Of a stretch of DNA of 64,000 nt, positions 14,402 to 50,270 are shown one piece after another. The stretch spans positions 56,123-120,122 of the forward strand of contig CAZTUB010000005.1 of assembly GCA_964615905.1 (NCBI GenBank), in the 5' to 3' direction. Each line of letters begins with the position of its first letter. Position 1 is the stretch's first letter. Source of the DNA: an uncultured Clostridia bacterium (GTDB lineage: Bacteria; Acidobacteriota; Blastocatellia; UBA7656). The notes below the pieces were generated by a model. That model was not told the DNA's origin. It did no database searches and was given only the letters and a program-made list of their open reading frames with translations. The position numbers were made by a program, and so were the translations under genes.

Positions 14402-16267
14402 ATGAAAAAATTGAAGCTATCTGTGCAGGCAGGTCTGCTTGTCACGCTGCTGTCGCTTGCCGCGCAGGCCGCCGCCCCGGAAGTCCTGAAGGTAGAGCCG
14501 CCTAACTGGTGGGCGAGCCATTCCATAAACCCAGTCCGTGTGATGATACAAGGGCGCAACCTCGCTTCCGCTCGCGTCGAAGCGGTGGGAGCCGGGCTTG
14601 AGATAGGCGAAACGAAGCCGAGCGGCTCAGGCAATTACATCTTCGTCGATGTGAAGATAAGCCCGCGTGCGGCGGCTGGTCGCCGCGTGCTCAGGATCAT
14701 AACTTCGAGCGGCACCGCCGACGCAAGCTTTGAAATCTCGCCGCCCCTTGCCCGTCAGAACCGGTTTCAAGGATTCACGACAGGCGACGTGATCTATTTC
14801 ATCATGCCCGACAGGTTCAGCGACGGAGACGCCGCAAATAATAACCCCGCCGAATCTCCCGGCATGTACTCGCGCTCGAACCCCCGCGCATACCACGGCG
14901 GCGATCTTCAAGGCATCATCAACCGGCTGGGGTGGCTCAAGCAGCTTGGCATCACGGCCATCTGGACCACGCCTGTCTATGACAACACTTCGCGCATTCG
15001 CGATTATGAATGGGGCAAGCAAGTTACAGATTATCACGGGTACGGCACGGTCGATTTTTACCGTGTCGAAGAACATCTGGGCTCGCTCGCGCTTTACAGA
15101 GAACTGGTTGACCGCGCGCACGCGCTCGGCATAAAGGTGATTCAAGATCAGGTCGCGAATCACACGGGACCGGATCACCCGTGGGCTAAAGACGCGCCTA
15201 CGGAGACCTGGCTTAACGGCACGCTCGAAAAGCACCTGAACAACATCTATGACATCAAGTCGCTGACGGTGCCGAACCCGGACCGTGAGAGGTACGAAGC
15301 GACACTGCGCGGCTGGTTCGGGAACTCCTTGCCGGACATAAACCATGATGACGCGGAAGCCGCCCGCTACGTTATTCAAAACGCCGTGTGGTGGGTCGAG
15401 ATGACCGGACTTGACGGGATACGGCAGGACACCTTTCCTTACGTGCCGCGCAGGTTCTGGCCCGGCTGGAACCAGTCGCTCAAGCGCGCCTTCCCTCGCC
15501 TGACAGTCGTAGGTGAGGTCTTCGATCAAAGGCCGGAAGTAGTCTCTTTCTTTCAAGGCGGCAAGGCGCGATTTGACGGGATCGACACGGAGCTTTATAC
15601 GGTATTCGATTTCCCAAGCTACTTCGCGATGCGCGATGTCTTTATCAGAAACCACCCCATCAAGCGGCTCGCGGAGGTACTTGCCCAGGACCACCTTTAC
15701 ACGAACCCGCGCGTGCTTGTGACCTTTCTGGGCAACCACGACGTGACGCGCTTCGTAAGCGAGCAGGGCGCGCGAGACGAAGGGCTGATGCTCGCGTTCA
15801 CATACTTGCTCACGATGCGCGGGACTCCGCAGATATACTCAGGCGACGAGATTGGCCTCGAAGGGCGCGACGATCCCGACAACCGGCGCGACTTTCCGGG
15901 CGGGTTTCCCGGCGACACCCGCAGCGCGTTTGACGACGAGGGGCGCACGCCGAGAGAGCGCAAAATATTCAACCACGTCAAAGAGCTAACACGGCTGCGC
16001 GCGCGCCACCCCGCGCTTCGCGAAGGCGATATGCGCGTAGTTGTCGCGACCGACACGAGCCTGGCTTACCTGAGAGAGACGCCGCGCGAGCGCGTGATGG
16101 TCGCCATCAACAATTCGGGGAGCGCGGCCGAGATCGAAGCGCCCGTCCCTGCCGCGACACGCGTATGGGTCGAAGCTTCGAGCGGGCGGCTGCGATTAAG
16201 GCCTTCCGAAGGACGGATACGAATACCGCTCAAGGCGCGGGATTCTATTGTTTTAGTCGAGCGATAA
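14402..16267 (+). CDS. GH13 alpha-amylase family enzyme (cyclomaltodextrinase/neopullulanase-like, with N-terminal Ig-like domain), secreted
   Basis: Signal peptide. GH13 conserved regions: DVIYFIMPDRFSDGD, GIKVIQDQVANHTG (region I), GLDGIRQDT (nucleophile Asp region II), VVGEVFD (acid/base Glu region III), FLGNHD (region IV). Confidence 0.9.
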   Translation: MKKLKLSVQAGLLVTLLSLAAQAAAPEVLKVEPPNWWASHSINPVRVMIQGRNLASARVEAVGAGLEIGETKPSGSGNYIFVDVKISPRAAAGRRVLRIITSSGTADASFEISPPLARQNRFQGFTTGDVIYFIMPDRFSDGDAANNNPAESPGMYSRSNPRAYHGGDLQGIINRLGWLKQLGITAIWTTPVYDNTSRIRDYEWGKQVTDYHGYGTVDFYRVEEHLGSLALYRELVDRAHALGIKVIQDQVANHTGPDHPWAKDAPTETWLNGTLEKHLNNIYDIKSLTVPNPDRERYEATLRGWFGNSLPDINHDDAEAARYVIQNAVWWVEMTGLDGIRQDTFPYVPRRFWPGWNQSLKRAFPRLTVVGEVFDQRPEVVSFFQGGKARFDGIDTELYTVFDFPSYFAMRDVFIRNHPIKRLAEVLAQDHLYTNPRVLVTFLGNHDVTRFVSEQGARDEGLMLAFTYLLTMRGTPQIYSGDEIGLEGRDDPDNRRDFPGGFPGDTRSAFDDEGRTPRERKIFNHVKELTRLRARHPALREGDMRVVVATDTSLAYLRETPRERVMVAINNSGSAAEIEAPVPAATRVWVEASSGRLRLRPSEGRIRIPLKARDSIVLVER

Positions 16268-16322: not shown

Positions 16323-16449
16323 AAAGGTGCTACCGATCTGATTCAGGGGATGCGGCGCGCATCAGCAGTACCATTCAATCATCAATCATCAGGGTCCAGG
16401 TGCGTAGCGTCTTTCGGCATTCGCTTTGTTTCCCGGTTCCGCGAAGGAT

Positions 16450-18360
16450 ATGGTAAAGCCAATTAGATTATCTAAAGCCCGTTTTTTCTCCGCGCTGTCA
16501 GTCGCGTTGTTGCTGATCTCCGCCTCGCACGCGCTTGCGCAAACCGCCCCGGAAGTCCTGAAGGTAGAGCCGCCCAACTGGTGGGCGAACCATTCCATAA
16601 ATCCAGTCCGTGTGATGATACGAGGGCGCAACCTCGCTTCCGCCCGCGTCACGACCGCAGGCCAGGGCTTGCGCGTTGTGGGAGCGCCGAAGGTCAACCC
16701 GGCCGGCACATATCTTTTCGTAGACGTAATGATTGCTCCGGCGGCGCGACCGGCAATGCGCAAGCTCAAGATCACGACGCCGAGAGGGAGCGCAGAGGCG
16801 GATTTTGAAATCACGGCTCCGCTTGCGCGCCGGGGTCGATTTCAAGGGGTGACGACCGACGACGTTATCTACTTGCTGATGCCCGACCGCTTTAGCAACG
16901 GCGACACTACGAACGACGACCCGGCGAAATCGCGCGGGCTGCTCGACCGCTCGAAGGCCCGGTACTATCACGGCGGCGACCTTCGCGGAGTCATCAACCG
17001 GCTGCCTTATCTAAAAGACCTCGGCGTAACGGCGATATGGCTGAACCCGTGGTACGACAACAACGACGGGCTCAACGAGCGCGAGATGCCCGAAGGCAAG
17101 CCTATCACCGATTATCACGGTTACGGCGCGATAGATTTTTACGGCGTCGATGAGCACTTCGGCGACATGGCAATCCTGCGCGAGATGGTCGAGAAAGCGC
17201 ACGCGCTCGGCATAAAGGTGATTCAAGATCAGGTCGCCAATCACACGGGGCCTTATCACCCGTGGGTCAAAGAGACGCCGCTCGCGGACTGGTTTAACGG
17301 GACCGAAGCCAGCCACATCAACGAGACGTGGCAGACCTGGACGCTGCAAGACCCGCACGCGACCCCTGAGATCCAGCGGCCCATACTCGACGGATGGTTT
17401 ATCAACATACTCCCCGATCTCAACCAGAACAATCCTGAGGTTGCGCGCTACATCATACAGAACACGCTTTGGTGGGTCGGTATGACGGGACTCGACGCGA
17501 TCCGCCAGGACACGCTGCCGTACGTGCCGCGCTGGTTCTGGCGAGATTGGGTGACGGCGATCAAGCGCGAGTACCCGAACGTCAACGTGATAGGCGAGAC
17601 ATATGACGGCGACCCGGCGATAGTCTCGTTCTTTCAAGGCGGCGAGAAACGATTCGACGGCATCGATTCGCGAATCGACACTGAATTCGACTTCCCGCTC
17701 TTTTACCCCATACGCTCGGCTTTTGCTCAGGGCGAAACGATCAAGACGATCCCGCAGATGCTTGCGCGTGACCACCTATATCCGAACGCCGACGTGCTCG
17801 TCCCTTTTTTGGGGCTGCACGACATGCTCCGCTTTATGAGCGAGAAGGACGCGACCCGCGAAGGCTTGATGCTTGCGCAGACGCTTATCATGACGACGCG
17901 CGGGACTCCTTTGATCTACTACGGCGACGAGATAGCGATGGAGGGCGGGGGCGACCCCGACAACCGGCGCGATTTTCCGGGTGATTTTCCGGGCGACAGG
18001 CGAAACGCTTTTACCGAGACGGGACGCACGAAAGACGAGCGGGAGGTCTTCAATTACCTGCGGCGAGTCACGCGGCTTCGAGGCGAGCTTGAGCCGCTTC
18101 GTCGCGGGCGACTCGTGACGCTCGGCTTTACGGATCAACAGTACGCGTTTGCTCGCGCGACCGGGCGAGAGACTGTGATAGTCGTCTTTAACAACGCGAA
18201 GGATGACGCGGAGGTCGAGTTTGACATAGCGCCTTTAAAGCTAAAGCCGGGCGCGGCCTTTTCCGACAGGCTTGGGGTTGCGAAGCGCGTGACAATGGCC
18301 GGGACGATGATGAAAGTCGCCATGCCCGAGCGGTCGTCGAGCGTGTTGACCGTGCGGTGA
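16450..18360 (+). CDS. GH13 alpha-amylase family enzyme (tandem paralog of 14402..16267), secreted
   Basis: Same four GH13 regions (GIKVIQDQVANHTG, GLDAIRQDT, VIGETYD, FLGLHD). Signal peptide from the ATG at 16450 (MVKPIRLSKARFFSALSVALLLISASHALA). A TTG at 16426 is an alternative start. Confidence 0.9.
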   Translation: MVKPIRLSKARFFSALSVALLLISASHALAQTAPEVLKVEPPNWWANHSINPVRVMIRGRNLASARVTTAGQGLRVVGAPKVNPAGTYLFVDVMIAPAARPAMRKLKITTPRGSAEADFEITAPLARRGRFQGVTTDDVIYLLMPDRFSNGDTTNDDPAKSRGLLDRSKARYYHGGDLRGVINRLPYLKDLGVTAIWLNPWYDNNDGLNEREMPEGKPITDYHGYGAIDFYGVDEHFGDMAILREMVEKAHALGIKVIQDQVANHTGPYHPWVKETPLADWFNGTEASHINETWQTWTLQDPHATPEIQRPILDGWFINILPDLNQNNPEVARYIIQNTLWWVGMTGLDAIRQDTLPYVPRWFWRDWVTAIKREYPNVNVIGETYDGDPAIVSFFQGGEKRFDGIDSRIDTEFDFPLFYPIRSAFAQGETIKTIPQMLARDHLYPNADVLVPFLGLHDMLRFMSEKDATREGLMLAQTLIMTTRGTPLIYYGDEIAMEGGGDPDNRRDFPGDFPGDRRNAFTETGRTKDEREVFNYLRRVTRLRGELEPLRRGRLVTLGFTDQQYAFARATGRETVIVVFNNAKDDAEVEFDIAPLKLKPGAAFSDRLGVAKRVTMAGTMMKVAMPERSSSVLTVR

Positions 18361-21374: not shown

Positions 21375-21408
21375 CACGAACGCGATGAGAGGAATGCGGA
21401 CCGTAGAT

Positions 21409-21503
21409 CGTGAACCGTGAACCGTAAACCGTGACAAGAGGGAGCAGATGCCTGGTCTGCCGCTCCTCTCTGACTTGTCACGGTTTACGGTTCACGGTTC
21501 ACG
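21409..21503. repeat. Long hairpin element, copy B: perfect 30-bp inverted arms (CGTGAACCGTGAACCGTAAACCGTGACAAG / reverse complement) with a 35-nt loop, between the VWA gene stop and the transporter gene start
   Basis: Arms 21409-21438 and 21474-21503 are exact reverse complements. Loop 5' AGGGAGCAG and 3' CTGCCGCTCCTCT can extend the stem imperfectly. Confidence 0.85.
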
Positions 21504-29887: not shown

Positions 29888-32620
29888 ATGAGATCACCAG
29901 CGATCATGCGGCTTTCTATCGCTTTGCTCCTGACGGCGGCGGCTTCAACCTCTATCGCTCAAGCCCCTAACTCAATAGCGCCCGGCGCGCCCGGTGCCAG
30001 GCCTGCGTGGACCAACGGCAACAAGCAAGGCGTCGGCACTTCAAACACACTCGAATCGAAGGTCTGGTTCACTCTCGGCGAAGGCGTGCTTCAGGAGACC
30101 TATTACCCGACCGTTGACAAAGCCAACACGCGCAGCCTCGAATTTATCGTCACAGACAACCGCAGCTTTGCCGAGCTTGAAAGCCGCGATACGACGCACG
30201 AGATCGAAGTCGTAGCCAGTGATTCGCTGGCTTTCCGACAGATCAATACCTCGAAGTCAGGCCGCTATCGCTTGACCAAGACTTACATAACCGACCCCGT
30301 ACGTGACACAGTTCTTATAAACGTCGACTTCGTGCCGCTCAAAGGGGAAGGGCTGCGGCTTTACCTGCTCTACGACCCGGCGATTAACAACAGCGGCTTT
30401 CACGACACCGGCTACTCGGAAAACGGCGCGCTTATCGCGGCTGACGCTCGCGTTGCTTCCGCGCTTATATCGAGCACCGGCTTTGCACGCGCGTCGAGCG
30501 GCTACATGGGAGCGAGCGACGGCTGGGTTGACTTGAAAGATGATTTCAAACTCGATCAGGCGTACCGGCGAGCCGTCGATGGAAACGTTGTGCAGACGGC
30601 GGAGCTGCCCGCCGCCGCTCGGTCGTTTACGCTCGCGCTTGGGTTTGGCACAGAGGGCGCGGCTGCGCTTGCTGCGGCCCAGATGTCGCTCAAGCAAGGC
30701 TTTGCCCGGAAGATGGATCATTACAACACCGGCTGGCGAAATTATCTCGCCACGCTCAAGACCGTGGAAGCGAAATACCGCGACCAGTACCTTATGGCCG
30801 CGATGATGCTGAAGGCGCACGAAGACAAGACGTATCGCGGCGCGGGCGTCGCTTCGCTGACAGTGCCGTGGGGCGACGCGGCCGACGCGAGCGAGCCGAA
30901 CGTCGGCGGGTACCACAACGTCTGGTCGCGCGACCTCTATCAAGTCGCCACAGCGTTTTATGCTATGGGCGACAAAGAGGCCGCCGACCGCGCGCTCGAT
31001 TACCTGTTCAAAGTTCAGCAAAAACCGGACGGCTCGTTCCCGCAGAATTCATGGCTGGACGGACGGCCCTTCTGGAACTCTGTGCAGATGGATGAAGTGG
31101 CCTACCCGCTCATACTCGCTCACGAGCTTGGGCGCACTGACGCCGAGACTTTCGAGAAACACATAAAGCGCGCGGCGAACTATCTAGTCAAACACGGCCC
31201 GGCTACGCCTCAAGAGAGATGGGAAGAAGAGAGCGGCTATTCGCCTTCGACCATAGCGGCCGAGATCGCCGGGCTTATCTGTGCGGCTGAGATCGCTTCA
31301 AAGAACCGCGACGAAGCGTCGTCCGTTTTGTGGCGCGCGGCGGCTGATGATTGGGCACGCAAGGTGGAATCGTGGACCGTCACAACCGGCGGCCCGCACG
31401 GCGGGCGCTACTTTTTGCGCGTCTCTCAAACGGGAGAGCCAGACTCAGGCCAACCCCTTGAGATCAACAACGGCGGCGGGAGCTTTGACGAGCGCGAGAT
31501 CGTTGACGCAGGATTTTTAGAGCTTGTCCGGCTTGGGATTCGTCCGGCCGACGATCCGCTTATCAAACGCTCGCTTGAGGTCGTCGATCAAAAGATCAAA
31601 GTGGAGACGCCCAACGGCGCTGCGTGGTACAGGTACAACCACGACGGCTACGGAGAAAAGCCGGACGGACGCGGCTATGACGGCACGGGCAAGGGGCGGT
31701 TATGGGTGCTGCTCACGGGCGAGCGCGGCGAGTACGCGCTCCAAGCTGGTCTGGACGCTCGCCCTTATCTTGACGCCATGCTTCGCATGGCAACAAAAGC
31801 TCGCATGCTTCCCGAACAGGTGTGGGACCGCGCCGAAAGCCCCCTGCCTCACCTGAAATTCGGCCAGGGGACGGGCTCGGCTACACCGCTCGCCTGGACC
31901 AACGCGCAGTTCATAAGGCTCGCACTCGCGATTCGAGAAGGCCGCCCCCAGGCCATGCCCGCCCCTGTCGCAGCACGTTATCTAGGGCAGGGCGCGCGGC
32001 TATCGACGACCGCGCGCGCATCGCTCACGCGGCCGCCTGAGATCACCGCTGTCAAGCCCGGCCAGCAGATCGAGATAGCCGGTTTCACTGAAGGCACGCA
32101 GGCCGTCTTATTCACGGGCGGGGAAGTTAAGGAGATCAAACCCGGACCTTTCAGACTGCCTGTCACTGTCACTGAAGACGAAACGCGCGTGGTGGTCGCC
32201 GCAACCGGCGCAGACGGCACGACTGCGATTGACTCGATCACGGTCAGACAGTCTCGCCCCGCCTCGGAAGACGCGCCGCCCGATTGGAGCGACCGCAGGC
32301 TCGGCGACCAGTTGATGAACGGGCTCTCTCCAAAGATCACAGGCTCGTGGGTAACGTTCATCTACAGGGGCGACGCGAAATCGGTCGAGGTCGTGGGCGA
32401 GATGACCGGCTGGAAGAGGCGCGGGTTAGTGATGAGGCCGCTCGCGGGCACGAACGTCAAATACCTCTCGCTCAAGTTTCCTGAAGACGCGCGCATCGAA
32501 TACAAGTACGTGGTCGATGAGAAATGGGTGCTTGACGAGCTTAACCCGAACAGGATCGATAAACGCGTCGGCGGTGAAAACAACTTCTTCCAGATGCCGG
32601 GCTACAGGCAACGGGACTGA
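29888..32620 (+). CDS. GH15 glucoamylase/glucodextranase-type enzyme with C-terminal AMPK-beta/CBM48-like glycogen-binding domain, secreted
   Basis: Signal peptide from ATG 29888. (alpha/alpha)6 GH15 blocks (YHNVWSRDLYQVATAF, TPQERWEEESGYSPST, GSFDEREIVDAGFLELV). C-terminal WVTFIYRGDAKSVEVVGEMTGWK...KYVVDEKWVLDELNP resembles the AMPK-beta GBD/CBM48. The longer upstream extension in the ORF track overlaps the preceding GNAT gene and is rejected. Confidence 0.8.
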   Translation: MRSPAIMRLSIALLLTAAASTSIAQAPNSIAPGAPGARPAWTNGNKQGVGTSNTLESKVWFTLGEGVLQETYYPTVDKANTRSLEFIVTDNRSFAELESRDTTHEIEVVASDSLAFRQINTSKSGRYRLTKTYITDPVRDTVLINVDFVPLKGEGLRLYLLYDPAINNSGFHDTGYSENGALIAADARVASALISSTGFARASSGYMGASDGWVDLKDDFKLDQAYRRAVDGNVVQTAELPAAARSFTLALGFGTEGAAALAAAQMSLKQGFARKMDHYNTGWRNYLATLKTVEAKYRDQYLMAAMMLKAHEDKTYRGAGVASLTVPWGDAADASEPNVGGYHNVWSRDLYQVATAFYAMGDKEAADRALDYLFKVQQKPDGSFPQNSWLDGRPFWNSVQMDEVAYPLILAHELGRTDAETFEKHIKRAANYLVKHGPATPQERWEEESGYSPSTIAAEIAGLICAAEIASKNRDEASSVLWRAAADDWARKVESWTVTTGGPHGGRYFLRVSQTGEPDSGQPLEINNGGGSFDEREIVDAGFLELVRLGIRPADDPLIKRSLEVVDQKIKVETPNGAAWYRYNHDGYGEKPDGRGYDGTGKGRLWVLLTGERGEYALQAGLDARPYLDAMLRMATKARMLPEQVWDRAESPLPHLKFGQGTGSATPLAWTNAQFIRLALAIREGRPQAMPAPVAARYLGQGARLSTTARASLTRPPEITAVKPGQQIEIAGFTEGTQAVLFTGGEVKEIKPGPFRLPVTVTEDETRVVVAATGADGTTAIDSITVRQSRPASEDAPPDWSDRRLGDQLMNGLSPKITGSWVTFIYRGDAKSVEVVGEMTGWKRRGLVMRPLAGTNVKYLSLKFPEDARIEYKYVVDEKWVLDELNPNRIDKRVGGENNFFQMPGYRQRD

Positions 32621-32704
32621 CTGGCAAGTCCAGCCAGGTAATTTCTATCATCGGCTTCCGGCGCGGGTTCCGGCTGATTACAATAGAGCAGGAGGAAAAT
32701 CATA

Positions 32705-32986
32705 ATGAAAGCAATTTGGAACGGCGCTGTGCTGGCCGATAGCGATGACACAGTGGTCGTGGAAGGGAATCAGTACTTCCCGCCCGACTCGATAAACCGC
32801 GAATACTTTCGCGAGAGCGGTACTCACACGACCTGCCCGTGGAAAGGCGAGGCGAGCTACTACGACGTTGTGGTCAACGGCGAGTCGAACAAGGATGCGG
32901 CGTGGTATTACCCCGCGCCAAAGGACGCGGCTAAAGAGATAAAAGATCACGTTGCGTTCTGGCGGGGCGTGCGGGTAGAGCAATGA
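32705..32986 (+). CDS. DUF427 domain protein
   Basis: RBS GGAGG. Sequence VVVEGNQYFPPDSINREYFRESGTHTTCPWKGEASYYDV matches the DUF427 (PF04248) conserved core. Confidence 0.75.
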   Translation: MKAIWNGAVLADSDDTVVVEGNQYFPPDSINREYFRESGTHTTCPWKGEASYYDVVVNGESNKDAAWYYPAPKDAAKEIKDHVAFWRGVRVEQ

Positions 32987-33010
32987 TCGAGTAGCGCTTG
33001 ATTGTAGATC

Positions 33011-33045
33011 GGTCGAGGGCATGAGGTGAGCGTATGCCCTCGACC
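33011..33045. terminator. Bidirectional intrinsic-terminator-like hairpin between the convergent DUF427 and kinase genes
   Basis: Perfect 12-bp stem GGTCGAGGGCAT / ATGCCCTCGACC with an 11-nt loop. No strong U-tract. Confidence 0.5.
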
Positions 33046-33057
33046 GAGACAGGCGTT

Positions 33058-34665
33058 TCAGTTCTTCTTCTTAGCTTCCTTCTTGATAGCGTCGCCGACA
33101 GCATCCTTGATCTTACCGAAGAGGCCTTTCTTCTTCTCCTTCTTCTCTTCTTTCTTCTCTTCTTTCTCAGGCTCTTTGGCTACGACTTTTGGCTCTTCTC
33201 TTGGTTGAGGCTTAGGCGGCGGCGCGGTGACAACGGGTTGTGGTTGAGCGGTAGCCGCTGGCGCGCTGCTCTCCGCAACCTTTTCCGCGCGACCGCCCCG
33301 TGTGCGGCTGGTCTTGCTTGCCTCGGTTGGGGAGGTGTCGGCGGGTGTCGAGCCCGTGTCGAGTTTTGGCGGATTTGTCGGGTCGGTGACCGCCTGCGCC
33401 GGAGCTTGCGACTGCGCGGGCGCAGGGGCGGGCGCGCTTGCCGAGGGCGGCGTAAGGTTTTGAGGCTGCGCGGGCTGACTGCCGCCTCCCATAAAGGCGA
33501 GCGGCACTCCGAGCAGTGCGAGGATTGCCACGCCCGCTCCCGCGTAATGTTTCCAATTCAGCTTGCTCAGAAGAGAAGCCTGCGCGGCCTGACCGGCAAT
33601 GTCATGCGAGGGGGTCCTTATGGTCGGCACGTTTGAAAAATCCATGTAAGGCGCTTGCGCGCCAGTGCCCGCGCCGAGGCGTGTCTCCTTGGGCTGAGCA
33701 TCATTAAAGTGAGCGGGAGCGGACGGCTGGTAATTGCCCCCCGCGCCCGGAGCGAGCCGCGTCTCCTTCAAGCCGCCGGCCGCTGGCGGCTCTCCGAGTC
33801 GTGTCGCGGGCGCTACGTAACCGGGGTGCGCTCGTTCCGCGGGGGTCGCGCCCGCGTTTAGCGCGCCGAGCAGCACCGCGCGAAACTCGCCCGCGCTCTG
33901 AAAGCGTGCGGTCGGTCGTTTTGCTAGCGACCGCATAATGGCTTCTTCGATGACCGGAGGGATCGACGCAGTAAATCTTGTCGGCGGCGGCGGCGCATCC
34001 TCGATCTGTGATTTCATCAGATCGAATTCGCTCGGACTGCTAAACGGCACGCGACCGGTGAGCATCTCGTAGAGCAATATGCCTAGCGAATAGATGTCGG
34101 AACTCGCGCCTGTCTCTTCGCCGCGAACCTGCTCAGGAGACATGTACTCGATGGTGCCGACGATGTTGCCCTGCCGCGTCATTCGCGCGGTCCCAAGCAC
34201 GCGGGCGATTCCAAAGTCCATCACCTTGATGGTCCCTGTCTCGGTCAGCATCATGTTGGCGGGCTTTACGTCCCGGTGAATTATGCCGAGCTTGTGCGCG
34301 TGGTCGATACCTTCGAGCGCCTGGCAGAAGAGCGTGACCGCGCGCTCCCACCCAATCGCGCCGTTTCTTCTTATCACGTCGTCGAGCGTCTGGCCGCGCA
34401 CGAATTCGAGCACCATGAAGAAGTCTTCGCCCTGGCGGAAGAAGCTGTGAAGCGTTGCGATATTGGGATGGTTGAGCTTGGCCAAGGTGACGGCCTCGGA
34501 GCGGAAGCGCTCGACGACCTGGGGCTGGCTGGCAAGCTCAGGCCGCAGCATCTTTATCGCCACCTCGCGTTCGAGCATGAGGTCTACGCCTTTGAATACG
34601 GCCCCCATCCCGCCTTCGCCTATCTTCTCCGTGATCTTATAACTTCCTACTACATTGCCGATCAT
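33058..34665 (-). CDS. Ser/Thr protein kinase with single TM and low-complexity P/A/Q-rich plus K/E-rich C-terminal tail
   Basis: Hanks kinase subdomains (GEGGMGAVFKG, AIKML, HRDVKPAN, DFGIA, SPEQ). TM segment AGAGVAILALLGVPLAF. C-terminal EKEEKKEEKKEKKKGLFGKIKDAVGDAIKKEAKKKN. Confidence 0.9.
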   Translation of the reverse strand: MIGNVVGSYKITEKIGEGGMGAVFKGVDLMLEREVAIKMLRPELASQPQVVERFRSEAVTLAKLNHPNIATLHSFFRQGEDFFMVLEFVRGQTLDDVIRRNGAIGWERAVTLFCQALEGIDHAHKLGIIHRDVKPANMMLTETGTIKVMDFGIARVLGTARMTRQGNIVGTIEYMSPEQVRGEETGASSDIYSLGILLYEMLTGRVPFSSPSEFDLMKSQIEDAPPPPTRFTASIPPVIEEAIMRSLAKRPTARFQSAGEFRAVLLGALNAGATPAERAHPGYVAPATRLGEPPAAGGLKETRLAPGAGGNYQPSAPAHFNDAQPKETRLGAGTGAQAPYMDFSNVPTIRTPSHDIAGQAAQASLLSKLNWKHYAGAGVAILALLGVPLAFMGGGSQPAQPQNLTPPSASAPAPAPAQSQAPAQAVTDPTNPPKLDTGSTPADTSPTEASKTSRTRGGRAEKVAESSAPAATAQPQPVVTAPPPKPQPREEPKVVAKEPEKEEKKEEKKEKKKGLFGKIKDAVGDAIKKEAKKKN

Positions 34666-34701
34666 ATTTTATCCTCCTACTCGCGCGCGGCGATTTATAC
34701 C

Positions 34702-35838
34702 CTAGTTGTAACTCTGGATCAAACTGATTATTAGGTTCGATTCCGCCTTCTTGCGTGTCGCGGGCGCGAAGTTATAAGTCTTTGACTTGTCCTTCGCCTT
34801 CTGTTGCTCCGGTTCTCTAAAGACCTTCAGATGAAAAGCGCCAAGCTCTGAGCCGACAAACCCGTTCAGCTTCGCCTCTTTTATCTTCGTATCTTCCGCT
34901 TCAAAAGTATGGTTGCCGTCTTTTGCCTTGAATGTCACGGCAGCCTTTGTGACAAAGAGCGAGCCCTCGCAGTAAGTCTTAAAGAAGCCGTCGTGATCGT
35001 GATAAACATAAAAGACCGCGGACCCGCCGCGATCAAGCGCGGCGCGCATGGACTGTTCGGCCGAAAAGATATCTTGATTGCCGTACAACTGCGCAAACCC
35101 CATCAATTGATACGCAGTCGGTCTTGCCGAGTCCATCCTGACCGCTTCTTGAAGCAGACGAATGGCGCGATGAGAGTCGCTTGCCTGCATCGCGGCGACC
35201 GACTGGTCTGTCAGATCATCATAATCGGGAGTGTTGGCCGAGGCAACTCTCGACGCAGAGCTTGACGGTGCGGTCGTAGCTTTTTCCGAGATCGCGCCGA
35301 GGAGCGAGCGGTTGCCGCCAGCGGCGGTGATCTCGCGTGCGATCTCAGGCGTCATAGAAAAACTGACGCCTCGCACTTCGACAAACTGCTCGACGCGCGC
35401 GACGGGGACGCCGCTTTGCAAGAGCGTGATGACCTCGTTCTTTCCGAGCGGCGGCCCGGCGGGCACTGCCGCCGAATTCCGCCCCGCGCTGTTCGAGCTG
35501 GCCGGGCGCGACGAGGTTGAAACCGGCGTCGCCGGGCGGTAATTGGCATGGATGGCAGCTATAAGCTCCGGCCGCGCGCCTGCTTGCTGGAACTCGGATT
35601 CGATTGAAGGGGTCATTTGAAAATCGACCCCGCGCTGCTCGATGGCCTGGACGACCTCCTGCGTGGACAGAGCGTTCAGGCGCACAACTTTCAAAAGCCG
35701 CTCCTTGTCATAAGGATTTTTCCGCGCCTGCATCTCGGCTGTTGCGAAACCGAATGAAGCGACTAATATCGCGGTCGCAAGGAATGTGACCGCGCGGGCG
35801 AGCCGGGCTTTTTTGTGGTCTTCAAACTCTCTTTTCAT
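34702..35838 (-). CDS. Hypothetical membrane-anchored (periplasm-facing) protein with two tandem ~55-aa repeats and a C-terminal unknown domain
   Basis: RBS GGAGA. N-terminal anchor AVTFLATAILVASFGFATA. Repeats LNALSTQEVVQAIEQRGVDFQMTPSIESEFQQAGARPELIAAI and LLQSGVPVARVEQFVEVRGVSFSMTPEIAREITAAGGNRSLLGAI. Located between two kinase genes on the same strand. Confidence 0.55.
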   Translation of the reverse strand: MKREFEDHKKARLARAVTFLATAILVASFGFATAEMQARKNPYDKERLLKVVRLNALSTQEVVQAIEQRGVDFQMTPSIESEFQQAGARPELIAAIHANYRPATPVSTSSRPASSNSAGRNSAAVPAGPPLGKNEVITLLQSGVPVARVEQFVEVRGVSFSMTPEIAREITAAGGNRSLLGAISEKATTAPSSSASRVASANTPDYDDLTDQSVAAMQASDSHRAIRLLQEAVRMDSARPTAYQLMGFAQLYGNQDIFSAEQSMRAALDRGGSAVFYVYHDHDGFFKTYCEGSLFVTKAAVTFKAKDGNHTFEAEDTKIKEAKLNGFVGSELGAFHLKVFREPEQQKAKDKSKTYNFAPATRKKAESNLIISLIQSYN

Positions 35839-35866
35839 GAACGAATCTCCTGCCCCTGCTGACGAA

Positions 35867-37300
35867 TTACTGATCGAGCAGCCTCCTTGCCTCTTCGCGT
35901 TTTCGCGCTCGCTCGCGCGCCGCAGTGTCTGTTTCCTTGCGCGTAACCTTAGGCTGCTGCTTTGGCTGGTTTACGGCCTCGCGCGGACGGGCGATGTTGT
36001 CGGAAGGTACGTTGACCGCCTCGGCCGGTTGCACCTTGGTCTGGCCCGGAAGCGGCTCGGCCACGGGCGCGGGTGGGGCGGGCGTATCCGCCTGTTTTTG
36101 CGCGGGCGCTGCGGCAGCCGGTTGTATAATTGTGGCTGGCGCATCGACGGCTTCGCCTTTCTTTCCCCCCACAAGCGCGAACCCAAGCCCGATGACCGCG
36201 ACCAGAACGACCGCCGCCGCCGCATAATGCATCCAGTTGAGCTTTGATAAAGGCGAGCCTTGCGCGGACGGCTGAGCGTTGCCGTATTGAGCCGCGTTGT
36301 AATAAGCCGGGGCTGGCTGAGCGCCCGCAACGGAGCCGAGCCGCGTGGCAGGCGCTTCGTCCTGAGCGTTTGCGGCTCCGAGCCTCGTCTCTTTTAGCGC
36401 CGCAGGGTTTGTTGAAACGCCTTGGCCGAGCCTTGTCGGCGGAACGGCCGGGCGTCTCTCTTCAAACTGTTTGTCGACGGGGCTCGTGGCAAGGCTTTTT
36501 TGAAGCGCATCGCGAAACTCGCTCGCGGTCTGAAACCGCGCGGCAGGGTTCTTTGCGAGCGCGCGCATTATAGCGTCTTCGACCGCTTCGGGTATCTGCG
36601 GCGCGAACGATCTTGGCGGCGGCGGCGCTTCTTGAATCTGCGCCATCATCAAGCCGAACTCCGTGTCGCTCGCAAACGGCACGCGGCCCGTCACCATCTC
36701 GTAAAGCAGAATACCGGCCGAGTATATGTCTGACCTCGCATCGGACTCGTTCCCTTGGATCGCCTCGGGAGACATGTACTCGATGGTGCCGACGATATTG
36801 CCCTGCCGCGTCATCCGCGCGGAGCCGAGCATACGCGCGATGCCGAAATCCATCACCTTGATCGAGCCGTCCTCGCGCATCAACATTATGTTGGCGGGCT
36901 TGATGTCGCGATGGACGATGCCGAGCTTGTGGGCGCGGCCTATGCCTTCGAGCGCCTGGCAGAAGAGCGAGATCGCGTGGCCGCATTCCATAGCGCCGGT
37001 TCTGCGGACGAGGCTGTCGAGCGTCTCGCCCTCGACATACTCCATCACCATAAAGAAGTCTTCGCCCTGTCTTATAAAGCTGTAGAGAGTGGCGATGTTA
37101 GGGTGGTTGAGCTTGGCCAAGGTGACGGCCTCGGAGCGGAAGCGCTCGACGACCTGGGGCTGGCTGGCAAGCTCAGGCCGCAGCATCTTTATCGCCACCT
37201 CGCGTTCGAGCATGAGGTCTACGCCTTTGAATACGGCCCCCATCCCGCCTTCGCCTATCTTCTCCGTGATCTTATAACTTCCTACTACATTGCCGATCAT
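35867..37300 (-). CDS. Ser/Thr protein kinase with single TM and P/A/Q-rich extracytoplasmic tail
   Basis: Hanks kinase motifs. First 65 codons are nucleotide-identical to the kinase at 33058..34665. Its start overlaps the PP2C gene stop (ATGA overlap at 37297-37300). Confidence 0.9.
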   Translation of the reverse strand: MIGNVVGSYKITEKIGEGGMGAVFKGVDLMLEREVAIKMLRPELASQPQVVERFRSEAVTLAKLNHPNIATLYSFIRQGEDFFMVMEYVEGETLDSLVRRTGAMECGHAISLFCQALEGIGRAHKLGIVHRDIKPANIMLMREDGSIKVMDFGIARMLGSARMTRQGNIVGTIEYMSPEAIQGNESDARSDIYSAGILLYEMVTGRVPFASDTEFGLMMAQIQEAPPPPRSFAPQIPEAVEDAIMRALAKNPAARFQTASEFRDALQKSLATSPVDKQFEERRPAVPPTRLGQGVSTNPAALKETRLGAANAQDEAPATRLGSVAGAQPAPAYYNAAQYGNAQPSAQGSPLSKLNWMHYAAAAVVLVAVIGLGFALVGGKKGEAVDAPATIIQPAAAAPAQKQADTPAPPAPVAEPLPGQTKVQPAEAVNVPSDNIARPREAVNQPKQQPKVTRKETDTAARERARKREEARRLLDQ

Positions 37301-38166
37301 CTTAACCCCTCCACTTCACGGGTTTCAGGAACAGGTCGCTCATTTTCGGGCGCGAGGCTCAGGATGCCGACCGTTATGTTGTCGTGGCCGCCTCGCTCTT
37401 TCGCCACATTGACCAGATGCTCGCACGCCCGCTGCGGGTGATAATTCAAGACCGCATCTTTTAGCTCCGCGTCTTCTACGAGGTCGTACAACCCGTCGGA
37501 GCAGAGCAGAAAGCGGTCGCCCGTTTTGACAGGGAAGGGCTCTTCCCACGTAGCCACGTCGATGTCGGACTGCGTGCCCATGGCGCGCAGTATCACATTT
37601 TTGTCCGGGTGATACCGCGCCTGCTCCTGGGTGATCCAGCCGCGCTTGACCATCTCCATAACCGCCGAGTGGTCTTCGGTCATCACGTAAATCTCGCCCT
37701 CGCGCACGAGGTATATGCGGCTGTCGCCGACGTGCGCGGCTATCGCGGAGTTGTTGAGCAGCACGAGCGCCGTGCAGGTCGTCCCCATCCCGCTCAACTC
37801 CTCGTTGTCCTGAGAAGCGTTGTGAATAGCCTTGTTCGCTTCTCGAAATGCCCGCTTCAAAGCCTGTGTGGGGTCGTTGCCGTCCGAATAATAGATGTCG
37901 CTTACAATATCGACCGCCGTCGAGCTTGCCACCTCTCCAGCGGTGTGGCCGCCCATGCCGTCGGCCACGATAAAGAGCACCCCCTTGGTTGCGAGCGTAT
38001 GCGGGTCGTTGGGGTAGACGTATTTGCCTGAGTCTTCGTTTACCTCGCGCACGCAACCGACATCCGTCTTGAGACCCGAAATAATATCATATTCGGGCAA
38101 CAGGCTGCCGGTGGCTGCGTGCTGCCCGTCGTTGCCTGTCTTGTGTCTTTTCAGTAGGTTGAACAT
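37297..38166 (-). CDS. PP2C-family Ser/Thr protein phosphatase (Stp1/PrpC-like)
   Basis: PP2C motifs DGMGGHTAGEVAS, VGDSRIYL, DGLYD, GGHDNITV. Confidence 0.9.
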   Translation of the reverse strand: MFNLLKRHKTGNDGQHAATGSLLPEYDIISGLKTDVGCVREVNEDSGKYVYPNDPHTLATKGVLFIVADGMGGHTAGEVASSTAVDIVSDIYYSDGNDPTQALKRAFREANKAIHNASQDNEELSGMGTTCTALVLLNNSAIAAHVGDSRIYLVREGEIYVMTEDHSAVMEMVKRGWITQEQARYHPDKNVILRAMGTQSDIDVATWEEPFPVKTGDRFLLCSDGLYDLVEDAELKDAVLNYHPQRACEHLVNVAKERGGHDNITVGILSLAPENERPVPETREVEGLR

Positions 38167-38253
38167 AAAATGATGGCTCTCTCTGAGGCTCTCCCCGGTT
38201 TAGTATAAATAGAGAATGAACATACCATGTGCTCGTCAAAAACTGTGCAGCCG

Positions 38254-39534
38254 TTACTTGCTGCCGGTCGTTTTATCAAGGTTGAAGGTATAGACTTTAC
38301 GGTTGTCTGTGACTGAAAAATCTACCTTCTTATCGACGAACCCCTCGCTTTTGAGCGTGAAGTTGATCTGCTCTCCTTGCGCAGCCTCAAACTTGTAGGG
38401 CGTGCTGCCGACCTTCTGGCCGTTGCGATAAACTTCTGCGCGCCCTTCGGCCACGTCTATCGTAAGCGATTTTATCTGCGCGCCCGGCTGGGCTTTATTC
38501 GAAGACCGGTTCTGAGGCGCAATCTGCTGCGTGGCCGGGACGGTCTGCTCGCCGTCTCCGCCCGCGCCGGTTATAAAGTAAAGGCCGCCCGCTACGGCCA
38601 GGACGAGCGCCGCCGCGCCGCCCGCCATCAGCGCTCGCGGGTTGTTGAGAGGCCCCGGCAATGACGGCCCCTTTGCCGCGAGTCCCGACGGGCCGCCGGG
38701 TTGAGGCGCTGCCATCCCTGCCCGCCCGACATCTCTCAACAGGTCGACTGCCGACTGGTATCTTTCCGAGGCGTTCTTTCTCAGGCACCGCGAGATTATA
38801 TTCTCGATCTCGCGCGGCGTCGAAGGGATGATCGCCGAAGCGCGCACGAAATCCACTCGCGTGACCTTCTCGTAAAGCTCGCCTATCGTGTTCGCTTCGA
38901 AAGGCAGGTAGCCCGTCACCATCTCGTAAAGCAGCACGCCCAGCGCCCAGATGTCCGAGCGCGCGTCGGCGTACCCGCCTTTGAGCTGTTCCGGCGACAG
39001 GTATTGGAGCGTGCCGATAAAGCCTCCGGCCTGCGTAAGCGCGGGCGACGATCCAGACTTGGCAATGCCGAAGTCGAGCATCTTTACCTGGCCCGCCGTG
39101 CTGATCTTTACGTTGCTCGATTTTATGTCCCTGTGAACAATGCCCTGGCTGTGTGTGTAATTTATGGCGTCGACTATAGAATGATAGATAGAAAGCGAGG
39201 TCGATAGCGGCATGACGCCTCGCCCTCTGATAAGCTCGTCGAGTGTCTGCCCCTCGACGTATTCCATGATTATGCAGGGGTGTCCCTGGAATTCCAGAAA
39301 GTCGTAGAGCGTGGCTATGTTGGGGTGCTGAAGGCTTGCCTGAATCCGCGCTTCGTTATAGAACCGCTCGATAAATTCGGGAGTGCGGACGCTCTGGCTC
39401 AGGACTTTGACTGCGACTATGCGCCCGATCTTCAAGTGTACGGCGCGATAAACCTCGCCCATGCCGCCCGCGCCCAACTGGTCTACGAGCCGGTACTCGC
39501 CGATGACCGAATTTATAAGTGAAGCTCCGTTCAT
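38254..39534 (-). CDS. Ser/Thr protein kinase with TM and C-terminal PEGA-like extracytoplasmic domain
   Basis: Kinase motifs (GAGGMGEVYRAV, HRDIKSSN, DFGIA). TM segment LMAGGAALVLAVAGGLYFI. C-terminal RAEVYRNGQKVGSTPYKFE resembles a PEGA domain. ATG at 39534; the track uses a TTG at 39543. Confidence 0.85.
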   Translation of the reverse strand: MNGASLINSVIGEYRLVDQLGAGGMGEVYRAVHLKIGRIVAVKVLSQSVRTPEFIERFYNEARIQASLQHPNIATLYDFLEFQGHPCIIMEYVEGQTLDELIRGRGVMPLSTSLSIYHSIVDAINYTHSQGIVHRDIKSSNVKISTAGQVKMLDFGIAKSGSSPALTQAGGFIGTLQYLSPEQLKGGYADARSDIWALGVLLYEMVTGYLPFEANTIGELYEKVTRVDFVRASAIIPSTPREIENIISRCLRKNASERYQSAVDLLRDVGRAGMAAPQPGGPSGLAAKGPSLPGPLNNPRALMAGGAAALVLAVAGGLYFITGAGGDGEQTVPATQQIAPQNRSSNKAQPGAQIKSLTIDVAEGRAEVYRNGQKVGSTPYKFEAAQGEQINFTLKSEGFVDKKVDFSVTDNRKVYTFNLDKTTGSK

Positions 39535-39544
39535 ATGAACCAAA

Positions 39545-39582
39545 GGCGGGATGTCTAACTTCGCGACATCCCGCCTCGTTTT
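39545..39582. terminator. Intergenic hairpin (11-bp perfect stem GGCGGGATGTC/GACATCCCGCC) between the FHA-protease and kinase genes; possible attenuator/terminator
   Basis: Stem 39545-39555 / 39565-39575 followed by TCGTTTT on the plus strand. The genes are on the minus strand, where the flanking tract is weaker. Confidence 0.35.
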
Positions 39583-39599
39583 CGATGTTCAGCGCAAAG

Positions 39600-41307
39600 T
39601 TACCTGGATGAGCTGACGCTCATAAGCTCTTTGCCGTAGCGTATGGGTACCGCGAAAGTTATCATCGCATCCGAGCGGCTGCTGGCAAAGAATATGCCCG
39701 TCACGCGCCCGCGATCATCAAAGACAGGCCCGCCCGAATTGCCCGACCCCGTCGAGTTGATCGTCAACTGGTACGCGTCGCCAAAGGCGCTGTAGGCCGA
39801 ATCTTTGCCCGCGCTCTCCGAACTGCGAATGATGCGCCCGATATTGCCGACGCTCACGGTCGGGTCGGGCACGATCTTGACCTTCGATTCGCGGTTAAAG
39901 ACATCCTGCGATTTGGTGACGCCGTACACGGGAGGGCTGACCGCAGGATAACCCAGCACGATTGCCGCGTCGCCCGGCTTGATCGCGTCGTAGTTGTCAT
40001 AAAGCTCAACCTTTGATACCGCTTCAGGAACGTCCACCTTCATCATCGCTACGTCGTGGCGGTCGCTCACGCGAGCCAGCTTGGCAGGGATGCGCAGGTC
40101 GTTTTTGGCAAAGGTTACGTTGAGATAATCGTTGCGGCCTTCAAACCCGCCCTGTAGCTTCTGGCCCGCTTGCTTGGTCTCGGAAGGGACCCAGTCTTGC
40201 GGCGAGCGGATGAGAATGGGGTTGCCCTCATTGTCCAAAGCGATCTGACCGCCCTGCACGACGATTCCGGGCGTGGCGTCCTGCGGGAACTGGTAGCTCG
40301 TGCGCCAGGTGGCGGCGACGTGACGGTTTGTGAGGATAAAGCCGTCGCTTGTGACGGTAAAGCCGGAGCCCGTGTGCTCGCCGCCTATGGGTCGCCCGCC
40401 ACGGCTATCCGTAGTCAGGTAAGGCTCGATAGTGTCTTGCGACACCATGACGTAAGCGGCCACGGATTGCCGCCCGTCCGGTACGATCTGCCGACCCTTG
40501 AAGTTATTCGGTATATACATCTGATAGACCTGGCCGCCCGTCGGGGTGTAGATAAGCTTCCAGCCGCACTCGATGTAGACAGCCGAGTTCGTATAGTTTT
40601 TTACGATGTCTGCGGGCGACATAGGCCCGGCTGCTGCCAGCGCCTCAAGCCTCCCTGATGTCTCGCTTGCCAGCTGCTTGCTCGAAGAATATTGCATGTA
40701 CCACAGGACCGCGCCGACCGCCGCGATCACGACCAGCAGCGCGCCCGCGCCGATAATCATGAAATTGCGCGAATCGCTCTTGCTCTGCGTTATCATGCGC
40801 TCGACGGTCGCTTTGCCCGGCCCCTGCTGATAATGCTGCTGCGGGTAGCCCTGCGACGAGCCGTAGCCTTGCGGCACAGCGGTTTGAGGCACTGTCCCGC
40901 CAACGCGAGTCGCGGGCGGGCCGCCCGCCGTCGGGTTGTCGCCCACGCGCGTAGGTTTCACGGCGTTTGCCGGTCGCGGTTCGAGATCGAACTGGAACTC
41001 AGGACCGCCCGCGCCGAACTGCACCATGTCGCCCGGCCCGACCTGTACGGTGCCCACAATCCGCTGCTTGTTGACGAACGTGCCGTTGCGGCTGTTGAGG
41101 TCTGTCACGTTAAACCGCGTCGGGTCGGCCGGGTCCTGCGATATTCGCGCGTGTTGACGCCCGACCAGATCGTCTCTTTCTGGATCGTATTTGACGGTCG
41201 CGGACGTATCCCGCCCGATAATGAGTTCTTTAAAATGTGTGAGCGGAAACTCTTCGACCTGTCCGGCCTTCGACCCGCTAATATGCCTGAGAACTATACG
41301 CTCCATG
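39600..41307 (-). CDS. FHA domain / TM / trypsin-like (S1) serine protease fusion protein
   Basis: N-terminal FHA (LIIGRDTSATVKYDPERDDLVGRQHARI....TDLNSRNGTFVN). TM segment FMIIGAGALLVVIAAVGAVLWYM. C-terminal chymotrypsin-fold motifs GSGFTVTSDGFILTNRHV and GNSGGPVFD. Start at ATG 41307 preceded by GGAGG. Confidence 0.8.
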
Positions 41308-41618
41308 GTAGCCTCCATTTGAGCCCGTTGTTATTCGGGTGATTCTTGGACGAAAGCAAAGGGTAATGCGTGCCTCTCGCGACTAAATCAAAGTTTAAGT
41401 TCAGCCACATACTATCAAGATTCTGACCGCTACTTACCGCACCCTTTCGTTCGTGTTTAGTTGTTCTGGGTTTGTCGCACAGGTAATCTTTAGTCCCTTG
41501 CGGGGGTTCGTGAAAATTACCTCACAAAACGGCGTGATTTTATGCCTGTTCCTTTTCTATGGCAAGGCCAAAATGGCACTGAATGAAACATAAAAGATAA
41601 CGCCGCCGGGTTATCGAG

Positions 41619-48719: not shown

Positions 48720-48819
48720 AAAATATTTTATAGTCCGAAAGTTCTGCGGATACCTGTGTTGTACGAGCCAGTTGGCCAGGATGTTTAGGAAAAGTTCTGG
48801 CTAAACGCGAACCGAGAGC

Positions 48820-48912
48820 CGTGAACCGTGAACCGTAAACCGTGACAAGCCAGAGTAGAGCGGTAGACCGGGCATCTCTCCTCTTGTCACGGTTTACGGT
48901 TCACGGTTCACG
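48820..48912. repeat. Long hairpin element, copy C: perfect 30-bp inverted arms (same arm sequence as copy B) with a 33-nt loop; right arm overlaps the 3' end of the CapK-like CDS
   Basis: Arms 48820-48849 and 48883-48912 are exact reverse complements and identical to the arms of copy B. Confidence 0.85.
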
Positions 48913-50270
48913 ATCTTCGTAATCTCTTGTATGACGAGGCGGAACTTGCCGCTTGCTACGAGCGGTATCTCTTCGGGAAAGCTCAGCGTGATCTCCATGG
49001 TGTCGCCCATCTTTTCAGATAGTGCGGCACGTATACGGTGGCTATCCCGGTCCGTGTAGCCGGACCTTCGTCTGATCCGAAGCTCAACCTTGCCTTTTTC
49101 ACGCTGATAAAACTGTATCTGGTGTACGTTGTCAAAGATGTCCGAGTGCATATTCAATGCCGTCACCGAGATCAGGTTATCGAGCCTGCCCACAAGCACC
49201 TCTTGGTGCCAGCGGCCGCGCGTCTCTCTTAGCAATCTATAATTGCGCCCGCAGGCGCAGGACGACGGGCCGACGACTGCCCAATCGTCCGTGCGGTAGC
49301 GAATGAGCGGCATGGCAAAGTTGTCGAGCGACGTGCCGACAAGCTCGCCCATCTCGCCTTCTTCGGTCGCGTCCGCGCCTTCGGCGGTGAGCACTTCGAC
49401 CACGCCGTACTCAGGGAAGATGTGATAGTTATTGCTCGCCTCGCATTCGCCCGCGAGGATGGTGGTCTCGCTGTGGCCGTACCAGGAAAATAGCCGCGCG
49501 CCGTAGAAAGATTCTATAAACTCGCGCTGGCCGGGATAGAGGTTCTCGGATGACGCGAGTATGGCTTTGAACCGGGGCGGCTCCTGACCGAGCGCTTGCA
49601 GGTGTCGCGCAAAGTCTATGACCGCCGACGGGTACGAGTGCAGAAACGGCAGCCGTTTCTCTCGCATGACGCGAGCGTAAGCGGCCACGTTTTCAGGGGT
49701 CATATGAAAGTTGGAGAAGACATAGGATCGCTCCGAAACCTGATACTCCCAGTGGCGGCGGTTCTTGACCGCCCAGCCCCTCAGCGCAGCCCGCAGGTCT
49801 CGCGGGCGAAACCCCACGCGCGCCCACTGCGTGAACATGAAAGCTCGCTCGCGCCCGCCCGCGTGCTTGAGGTTGTAGACTCCGAGAGGCGTGCCCATCG
49901 TGCCGCCGGTCGTGAAGTAGAGCCTGTCGCGCGGCTTTATATTCTCGGCAAGAAGATCGCGCAGGTTTTCGCGCACGGTCTCTTTGTCCAGAAGCGGCAG
50001 TACGCGCAGGTCTGCGACCGTTCGCACGCCTTCGGGGTCGAACCCGCGCTCTCGAAAGAGCCTGCGATAATAAGGCACATTCTTCGCAGCGTGACATAAC
50101 ATGCGGCGGAGCTTTTTCAGCTGATAATCCGCGAGCCTGTCTTCGCTCCAATGCTCGGACTGTTTTAGCAGGCTTAGTGTGGGCGCATACTGCGGCCCGT
50201 AGCATATAGGATCGGGCAGGCGGTAGTAGACCGGCTTTAATAGGGATTTAATCGAGTCTTTCGCGCCCAT
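48894..50270 (-). CDS. Adenylate-forming enzyme of the phenylacetate-CoA ligase / coenzyme F390 synthetase (CapK-like) family
   Basis: Start at ATG 50270 (MGAKDSIK...). PaaK/CapK-like blocks (LRRMLCHAAKNVPYYRRLF, YFTTGGTMGTPLG, ILASSENLYPGQREFIE). The last five codons (VNREP) and the stop lie within the repeat arm. Confidence 0.75.
   Translation of the reverse strand: MGAKDSIKSLLKPVYYRLPDPICYGPQYAPTLSLLKQSEHWSEDRLADYQLKKLRRMLCHAAKNVPYYRRLFRERGFDPEGVRTVADLRVLPLLDKETVRENLRDLLAENIKPRDRLYFTTGGTMGTPLGVYNLKHAGGRERAFMFTQWARVGFRPRDLRAALRGWAVKNRRHWEYQVSERSYVFSNFHMTPENVAAYARVMREKRLPFLHSYPSAVIDFARHLQALGQEPPRFKAILASSENLYPGQREFIESFYGARLFSWYGHSETTILAGECEASNNYHIFPEYGVVEVLTAEGADATEEGEMGELVGTSLDNFAMPLIRYRTDDWAVVGPSSCACGRNYRLLRETRGRWHQEVLVGRLDNLISVTALNMHSDIFDNVHQIQFYQREKGKVELRIRRRSGYTDRDSHRIRAALSEKMGDTMEITLSFPEEIPLVASGKFRLVIQEITKIVNREP

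Follow-up and report, generated by a model that had tools for sequence, protein, structure and literature searches.

The kinase cluster

The window (the whole 64,000-nt stretch of DNA that was analysed) carries a gene cluster on a single minus strand, in the order FHA-protease, K3, PP2C, K2, U378, K1. The first gene of the cluster (39600-41318) encodes a protein with FHA and trypsin-like protease domains (Pfam FHA and Trypsin_2; synteny). It is followed by K3 (38254-39543), the third kinase of the operon, with Pkinase and PEGA domains (Pfam; synteny), and by a PP2C-type phosphatase (37297-38166; Pfam PP2C, E = 3e-20), whose product is identical on the independently assembled contig L098 described below. 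K2 (35867-37300; 477 aa; Pfam Pkinase, E = 2e-57) and K1 (33058-34665; 535 aa; Pfam Pkinase, E = 7e-57) are Hanks-type Ser/Thr kinases, and between them lies a conserved 378-aa gene, U378 (34702-35838). The ATG of K2 overlaps the PP2C stop codon (ATGA, 37300-37297) and PP2C is predicted to be translationally coupled to K2, while K1 has its own ribosome-binding site, GGAGG, at 34673-34677. The genomes closest to the host of the kinase cluster are Blastocatellia (Acidobacteriota) MAGs, and an identical 535-aa K1 product is recorded at NCBI, on a 338,561-nt contig.

K1 and K2 share 64% amino-acid identity. The two kinases score 193 and 195 bits against PF00069, for which the cut-off is 31.7, and the catalytic motifs GEGGMG, VAIK, HRD(V/I)KPAN, DFG and SPE are intact in both translations. 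The best solved relatives of K1 are Mycobacterium tuberculosis PknA and PknB (E about 1e-61). Neither K1 nor K2 is a PASTA kinase of the PknB type, as a Pfam scan found no PASTA match in either and their C-termini are of low complexity. K1 has one hydrophobic, membrane-helix-like stretch as well as its low-complexity C-terminus. In the region that joins its kinase domain to its hydrophobic stretch, each of the two kinases has three short repeats of the form (K)ETRLG or P(A/P)TRLG (K1 residues ∼286-333, window ∼33667-33810; K2 residues ∼296-325), which could be candidate sites at which the operon's FHA protein docks on phospho-threonine. K3 has only ∼40% amino-acid identity to K1 and K2, and lies outside the exchange described below.

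U378 gave no match in a Pfam search. It has 654 homologues at E ≤ 1e-3, and all the named ones are from Blastocatellia or Acidobacteriota MAGs. The protein has many invariant residues, including an internally duplicated 'RGV(D/S)F..TPEI' and a C-terminal 'YHDHDGFF'. A metagenome scan with the U378 alignment returned 5 loci, and the gene is syntenic in relatives, accompanying these kinases in every locus examined. The order PP2C, K2, U378, K1 is kept in six relatives (L002, L003, L085, L086, L090 and L094) and is seen in part in five more (L004, L006, L087, L092 and L093). Judging from their sequences and gene order, K1 and K2 are old paralogues of a conserved Blastocatellia operon. In two loci, L096 (MAG DATFXM; 5708-6025) and L089 (1692-2009), the K1 position holds only a remnant, starting from near kinase residue 134, and L002 and L003 have an additional tandem copy, K1b, after K1. 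Thus, gene content at the K1 position is unstable among relatives.

An identical 5' tract in K1 and K2

The earlier note on this DNA had reported that the first 65 codons of the two kinase genes, plus 2 nt, are 100% identical. Exact comparison bears this out: 34469-34665 in K1 and 37104-37300 in K2, both on the minus strand and both running from the ATG to the second base of codon 66, agree at 197/197 nt, with a mismatch immediately beyond each end. The two copies are direct repeats with a spacing of 2,635 nt and with U378 inside. The tract encodes β1-β3, the ATP-binding G-loop GEGGMG (aa 16-21), the VAIK lysine K38 and the αC helix up to LN(H), again in agreement with the earlier note, and alignment to the PknA and PknB structures places its end in the αC-β4 loop.

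Both edges of the tract are sharp. On the 5' side, the base at −1 of the ATG already differs (T versus G), and the upstream flanks of K1 and K2 are unrelated except for the GGAGG ribosome-binding site, which lies at equal distance in the two genes. On the 3' side, nt 198-219 (codons 66-72) contain 6 synonymous differences in 7 codons, with amino acids identical to residue 72. The pair HSFFRQ and YSFIRQ, which the note had given as an example of quick divergence downstream, is found just 3' of the tract, and in blocks of 22 codons, identity over the remainder of the kinase domain is 62-89%. Identity along the whole genes, which had been named as a finding that would point to simple duplication, is not what is seen; the shared part of the coding sequences is confined to their first 197 nt.

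The identity is not due to chance. Among the 810 aligned sites of the kinase domain, which hold 175 differences, the longest identical run is 197, and this was reached in none of 2000 permutations (0/2000). At third codon positions, the probability that the first 65 would be free of the 97 differences is about 1e-15. Synonymous differences between K1 and K2 number 0 at 45 sites in codons 1-65 versus 69 at 122 sites in codons 101-270 (Fisher p = 1e-13), giving proportions of synonymous differences (pS) of 0.00 and 0.57, respectively.

Independent assembly of the repeat

The window comes from a MAG, and the earlier note had flagged a risk of assembly collapse. On this reading the 5' ends of the two genes would in reality differ, and their identity would have arisen through repeat collapse, chimeric joining or consensus polishing. 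Logan contigs provide an independent assembly of public sequencing runs, and two of them, L081 and L098, both from run SRR13766249, cover the locus. L081 equals window positions 34636-37133 at 100%, and ends 30 nt inside the K1 copy of the repeat and 30 nt inside the K2 copy. L098 equals positions 41166-37271 at 100%; it enters the K2 copy from the PP2C side and runs 30 nt into it before it ends. Together they reproduce 6.4 kb of the locus, with breaks of k−1 = 30 nt at three of the four repeat junctions, which is how a k = 31 graph behaves on meeting an exact repeat. These three 30-nt overhangs are consistent with k = 31, which we take to be the k of the Logan assembly. Contigs that break k−1 inside a repeat imply that the reads hold two upstream contexts on the same first 30 nt, and a branch right after nt 197.

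In L082, from a 99.6% identical strain in a second run, there is a single difference in K1, at nt 6, and the contig ends 30 nt after that base. L083 and L084, from a relative with 86% nucleotide identity and from two different runs, break at the same place, 27 nt into K1. Furthermore, the same pattern is found in other species, in assemblies made independently, and some of the tracts there are partly decayed, which collapse could not produce. On the other side, the independent contigs stop short of the repeat interior (nt 31-167) and of its junction with the K1 body, and exact-product look-ups of K1, K2 and a 114-aa downstream ORF in the contig index gave no match, though an identical K1 product is recorded at NCBI. 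A 477-aa Logan protein, P0238, was considered as a full-length K2 spanning the repeat and was rejected, as it is a 63% orthologue. The contigs thus speak against collapse at three of the four junctions, and an assembly or polishing artefact is very unlikely.

Homogenisation of the 5' segment in relatives

The same contrast between the two parts of the kinase domain recurs in four relatives. The pS between K1 and K2 of one genome is 0.27 in codons 1-65 versus 0.52 in codons 101-270 for L085, 0.34 versus 0.61 for L086 and 0.33 versus 0.58 for L094. L087 gives 0.00 versus 0.51, where the first value covers codons 27-65 only. The distant relatives L002, L003 and L006 show no contrast in pS between codons 1-65 and 101-270, and no 5' similarity of the paralogues. 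Over the comparisons as a whole, pS in codons 1-65 is 0.00-0.34 within these homogenised genomes versus 0.46-0.83 between genomes, the latter being at least as high as in the rest of the domain; within-genome pS in codons 101-270 is 0.51-0.76.

Trees of the two parts differ accordingly. In neighbour-joining, codons 27-65 pair the paralogues by genome in five genomes (the window, L087, L085, L086 and L094), and codons 101-270 give separate K1-position and K2-position clades across genomes. Same-genome paralogues are mutual nearest neighbours in 68-100% of bootstraps for codons 1-65 (68-78% for L085, L086 and L094) and in 0% for codons 101-270. For a core of nt 28-171, which was picked after inspection of the alignments, the figure is 94-100%, and distances over this same core are 0.05-0.07 within genomes versus 0.11-0.22 between them.

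L087 has an exact tract of its own, visible from nt 79, where the contig starts, as far as nt 204. This contig begins 126 nt inside the tract, which would fit an assembler with k = 127 breaking at the repeat. In relatives that show no conversion, exact matches between K1 and K2 reach at most 14-20 nt. Related loci had been proposed as a check for the same mosaic boundary; the 5' segment is indeed homogenised in four relatives, and the one exact tract among them ends at nt 204 rather than at nt 197. Comparison of these sequences places recurrent homogenisation of the ∼200-nt 5' segment beyond doubt, with at least two events (window and L087). The partly decayed cases in L085, L086 and L094 argue for more events, in what would be at least five lineages in all, and part of the signal in these three could come from one older event.

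The β4 patch and the limits of the tract

Directly 3' of the tract lies a divergent patch comprising the αC-β4 loop and β4 (nt 198-231), at 34435-34468 on the minus strand in K1, where it is of the 'ATL-H-SFF' type, and at 37070-37103 on the minus strand in K2, where it is of the 'ATL-Y-SFI' type. Across genomes, codons 69-77 (K1 34435-34461, K2 37070-37096) take two forms, 'ATL-H-SFF' and 'ATL-Y-SFL/I', and all the compared genomes that have both kinases (11/11) hold one H-type and one Y-type kinase. The dimorphic position, 73, aligns with a His in PknA, and the corresponding residue of PknB is, we believe, a Tyr (Y75). In eight relatives K2 is the H-type and K1 the Y-type, and the assignment is reversed in the window, L002 and L003. 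The reversal hints at an exchange of the β4 patch; a swap of K1 and K2 patches within the lineage of the window comes down to 5 versus 6 mismatches, over a patch too short to tell.

The 3' ends of both exact tracts (nt 197 in the window and nt 204 in L087) fall just ahead of this patch. At the other end, the tract does not extend 5' of the start codons because homology between the genes is lost upstream of them. The 3' limit may also be made sharper by selection to retain a patch of each type, H and Y. A homogenised island that reinforces itself, as set out below, and selection against loss of the H/Y dimorphism are not mutually exclusive as explanations of that limit.

Probable gene conversion and its alternatives

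The 197-nt identity is, with high probability, the product of recent interlocus (ectopic) gene conversion between old, tandem, same-strand kinase paralogues, and the newest event of a process that recurs in the clade. Three features of the data are those expected of gene conversion. In the segment, the paralogues are closer to one another within a genome than to their orthologues. Synonymous sites are homogenised, for which constraint at the protein level is no explanation. The tract is discrete and has diverged flanks, in genes that are older than the event. The earlier note had left the choice between recent gene conversion and segmental duplication; conversion stands, and duplication falls on the unshared flanks and on the separate orthologues of the two genes in many Blastocatellia. 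Going beyond that note, the orthologue comparisons indicate that the tract is the latest event of a recurrent concerted evolution limited to part of a domain, the N-lobe from β1 to αC.

In the proposed mechanism, one copy would act as the template for homologous-recombination repair of the other, or for strand exchange with it, 2,635 nt away. The stretch that begins at the start codon and ends in the αC-β4 loop would then be overwritten in a non-reciprocal transfer, probably RecA-type, within a chromosome or between sister chromosomes. The homogenised island would be the only segment with exact matches long enough for recombination to start. As the sole part that is similar enough for recombination, it would undergo conversion again and again with unchanged limits, as the remainder of both genes diverges. 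The direction of transfer is mixed in its signatures, since comparison with orthologues finds the first 13 residues K2-like and QVVERFR K1-like. GC3 showed no consistent shift of the kind that would indicate GC-biased conversion.

A further proposal, which we consider improbable though well short of negligible, is that selection maintains the homogenisation. K1 and K2 would then need an identical N-lobe face (β1-αC), either for K1/K2 heterodimerisation or for binding a shared N-lobe partner encoded in the operon, and the requirement for one H and one Y patch would set the 3' limit at nt ∼197-204. The residues that we take to form the back-to-back dimer of PknB, R10 and L33, align within the β1-αC segment of K1 and K2.

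Programmed recombination, in which the direct repeats would serve as a switch that deletes or amplifies a module of the K2 body and U378, or would provide cassette variation, is very improbable. Recombination of repeat with repeat would delete precisely 2,635 nt and leave an intact K1 coupled to PP2C, and gene content does vary at this place (the K1 remnants in L096 and L089, and K1b in L002 and L003). Against this, a Pfam scan of the neighbouring genes found no recombinase of the kind that a cassette system or shufflon would need, and deletion or duplication variants are absent from the contigs examined. In addition, the repeats are in direct orientation. Each gene is complete and has a ribosome-binding site of its own, and neither is a silent cassette.

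Slightly less probable again is selection at the nucleotide level, whereby some element that functions as RNA or DNA, such as a regulatory structure, a binding site or a target for an sRNA, would occupy the first ∼200 nt of both mRNAs and hold their synonymous sites the same. The identity does begin at the start codon, a common site of signals for translation control. However, the segment is as divergent synonymously between species as the rest of the gene, or more so (pS 0.46-0.83), and divergence this high means that no nucleotide element is conserved. Consistent with this, a scan of 32500-41500 against Rfam gave no hit up to E = 1, and L002, L003 and L006 have the same operon with no 5' similarity of the paralogues.

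Least probable of all is a recent segmental or whole-gene duplication followed by fast divergence everywhere except at the 5' end, which the tandem, same-strand arrangement and the extra copy K1b in L002 and L003 might suggest, but in which K1 and K2 would be mutual closest relatives along their whole length; the orthologue trees reject this, with K1 and K2 orthologues forming separate clades across genomes in codons 101-270, pS outside the tract is about 0.57 and near saturation, and the flanks are not duplicated.

Relation to known systems

The tufA and tufB genes of Salmonella are a known case of interlocus gene conversion and concerted evolution in bacterial paralogues. A survey across prokaryotes counted just 26 genes that undergo concerted evolution recurrently, most of them encoding members of stable complexes, and the word 'kinase' is absent from its main text (Wang & Chen 2018, PMC6053082). 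K1 and K2 resemble tufA/tufB and this 26-gene set in that paralogues are closer than orthologues, synonymous sites are homogenised, the process recurs in lineages and recombination between nearby copies is presumed. They differ from both in converting only a ∼200-nt segment smaller than a domain, the rest being ∼40% diverged synonymously, and from the 26-gene set in being signalling kinases. A literature search for gene conversion in bacterial Ser/Thr kinases found no report.

The babA/babB and sabA/sabB genes of Helicobacter pylori have identical 5' and 3' ends that are kept so by gene conversion. They share with K1 and K2 an identical terminal segment on divergent bodies. Those loci, however, lie scattered, and their role is antigenic or adhesin variation in response to pressure from the host, whereas K1 and K2 are adjacent genes for kinases with cytoplasmic kinase domains in a soil bacterium, with no sign of selection for variation. 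The PknA/PknB operon of M. tuberculosis is similar in having an FHA protein, a PP2C phosphatase and tandem membrane kinases. It differs in that K1 and K2 are without PASTA and that no cell-wall genes, such as homologues of rodA or pbpA, were found among the operon genes scanned. We know of no gene conversion between pknA and pknB.

A eukaryotic parallel is offered by mammalian TLR1 and TLR6, where gene conversion is described as limiting the divergence of tandem paralogues (PMC2077338). The likeness is one of partial-gene conversion in tandem paralogues, and the TLR1 and TLR6 proteins both pair with a common partner; unlike K1 and K2, they belong to another protein family and to a eukaryotic, meiotic context.

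Gene conversion between adjacent paralogues is already known, and K1/K2 is a clean but ordinary example of it. What the pair offers is a single signalling-kinase domain in which one part evolves in concert while the rest diverges, so that an internal control is present. Since concerted evolution is partial, whole-domain kinase trees of such paralogues mix two histories, and orthology calls in the large kinase families of Acidobacteriota can be misled. Exact repeats of this size also break short-read contigs right at these genes, as in L081, L087 and L098. If selection does hold the 3' limit of the tract, the β4 patch would be marked as the site of functional difference between the two kinases.

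Other repeats in the window

A second pair of tandem paralogues in the window, encoding GH13 cyclomaltodextrinase-like proteins (14402-16267 and 16426-18360, both on the plus strand), is 68% identical overall. Right after the signal peptide, a block of 107 nt (14472-14578 versus 16544-16650) is 95% identical, and is probably another 5'-localised conversion tract. Taking this block together with the kinase tract, this genome would seem prone in general to conversion between neighbouring paralogues.

An intergenic hairpin element of ∼110 nt is present in three copies, at 2561-2673, 21400-21503 and 48806-48919. Its stem of ∼30 bp is perfectly paired and is made up of the heptamers CGTGAAC and CGTAAAC, while the loops vary by copy. 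Folding energies of the three copies are −70 to −81 kcal/mol (z = −9 to −15), and the element resembles REP or MITE repeats.
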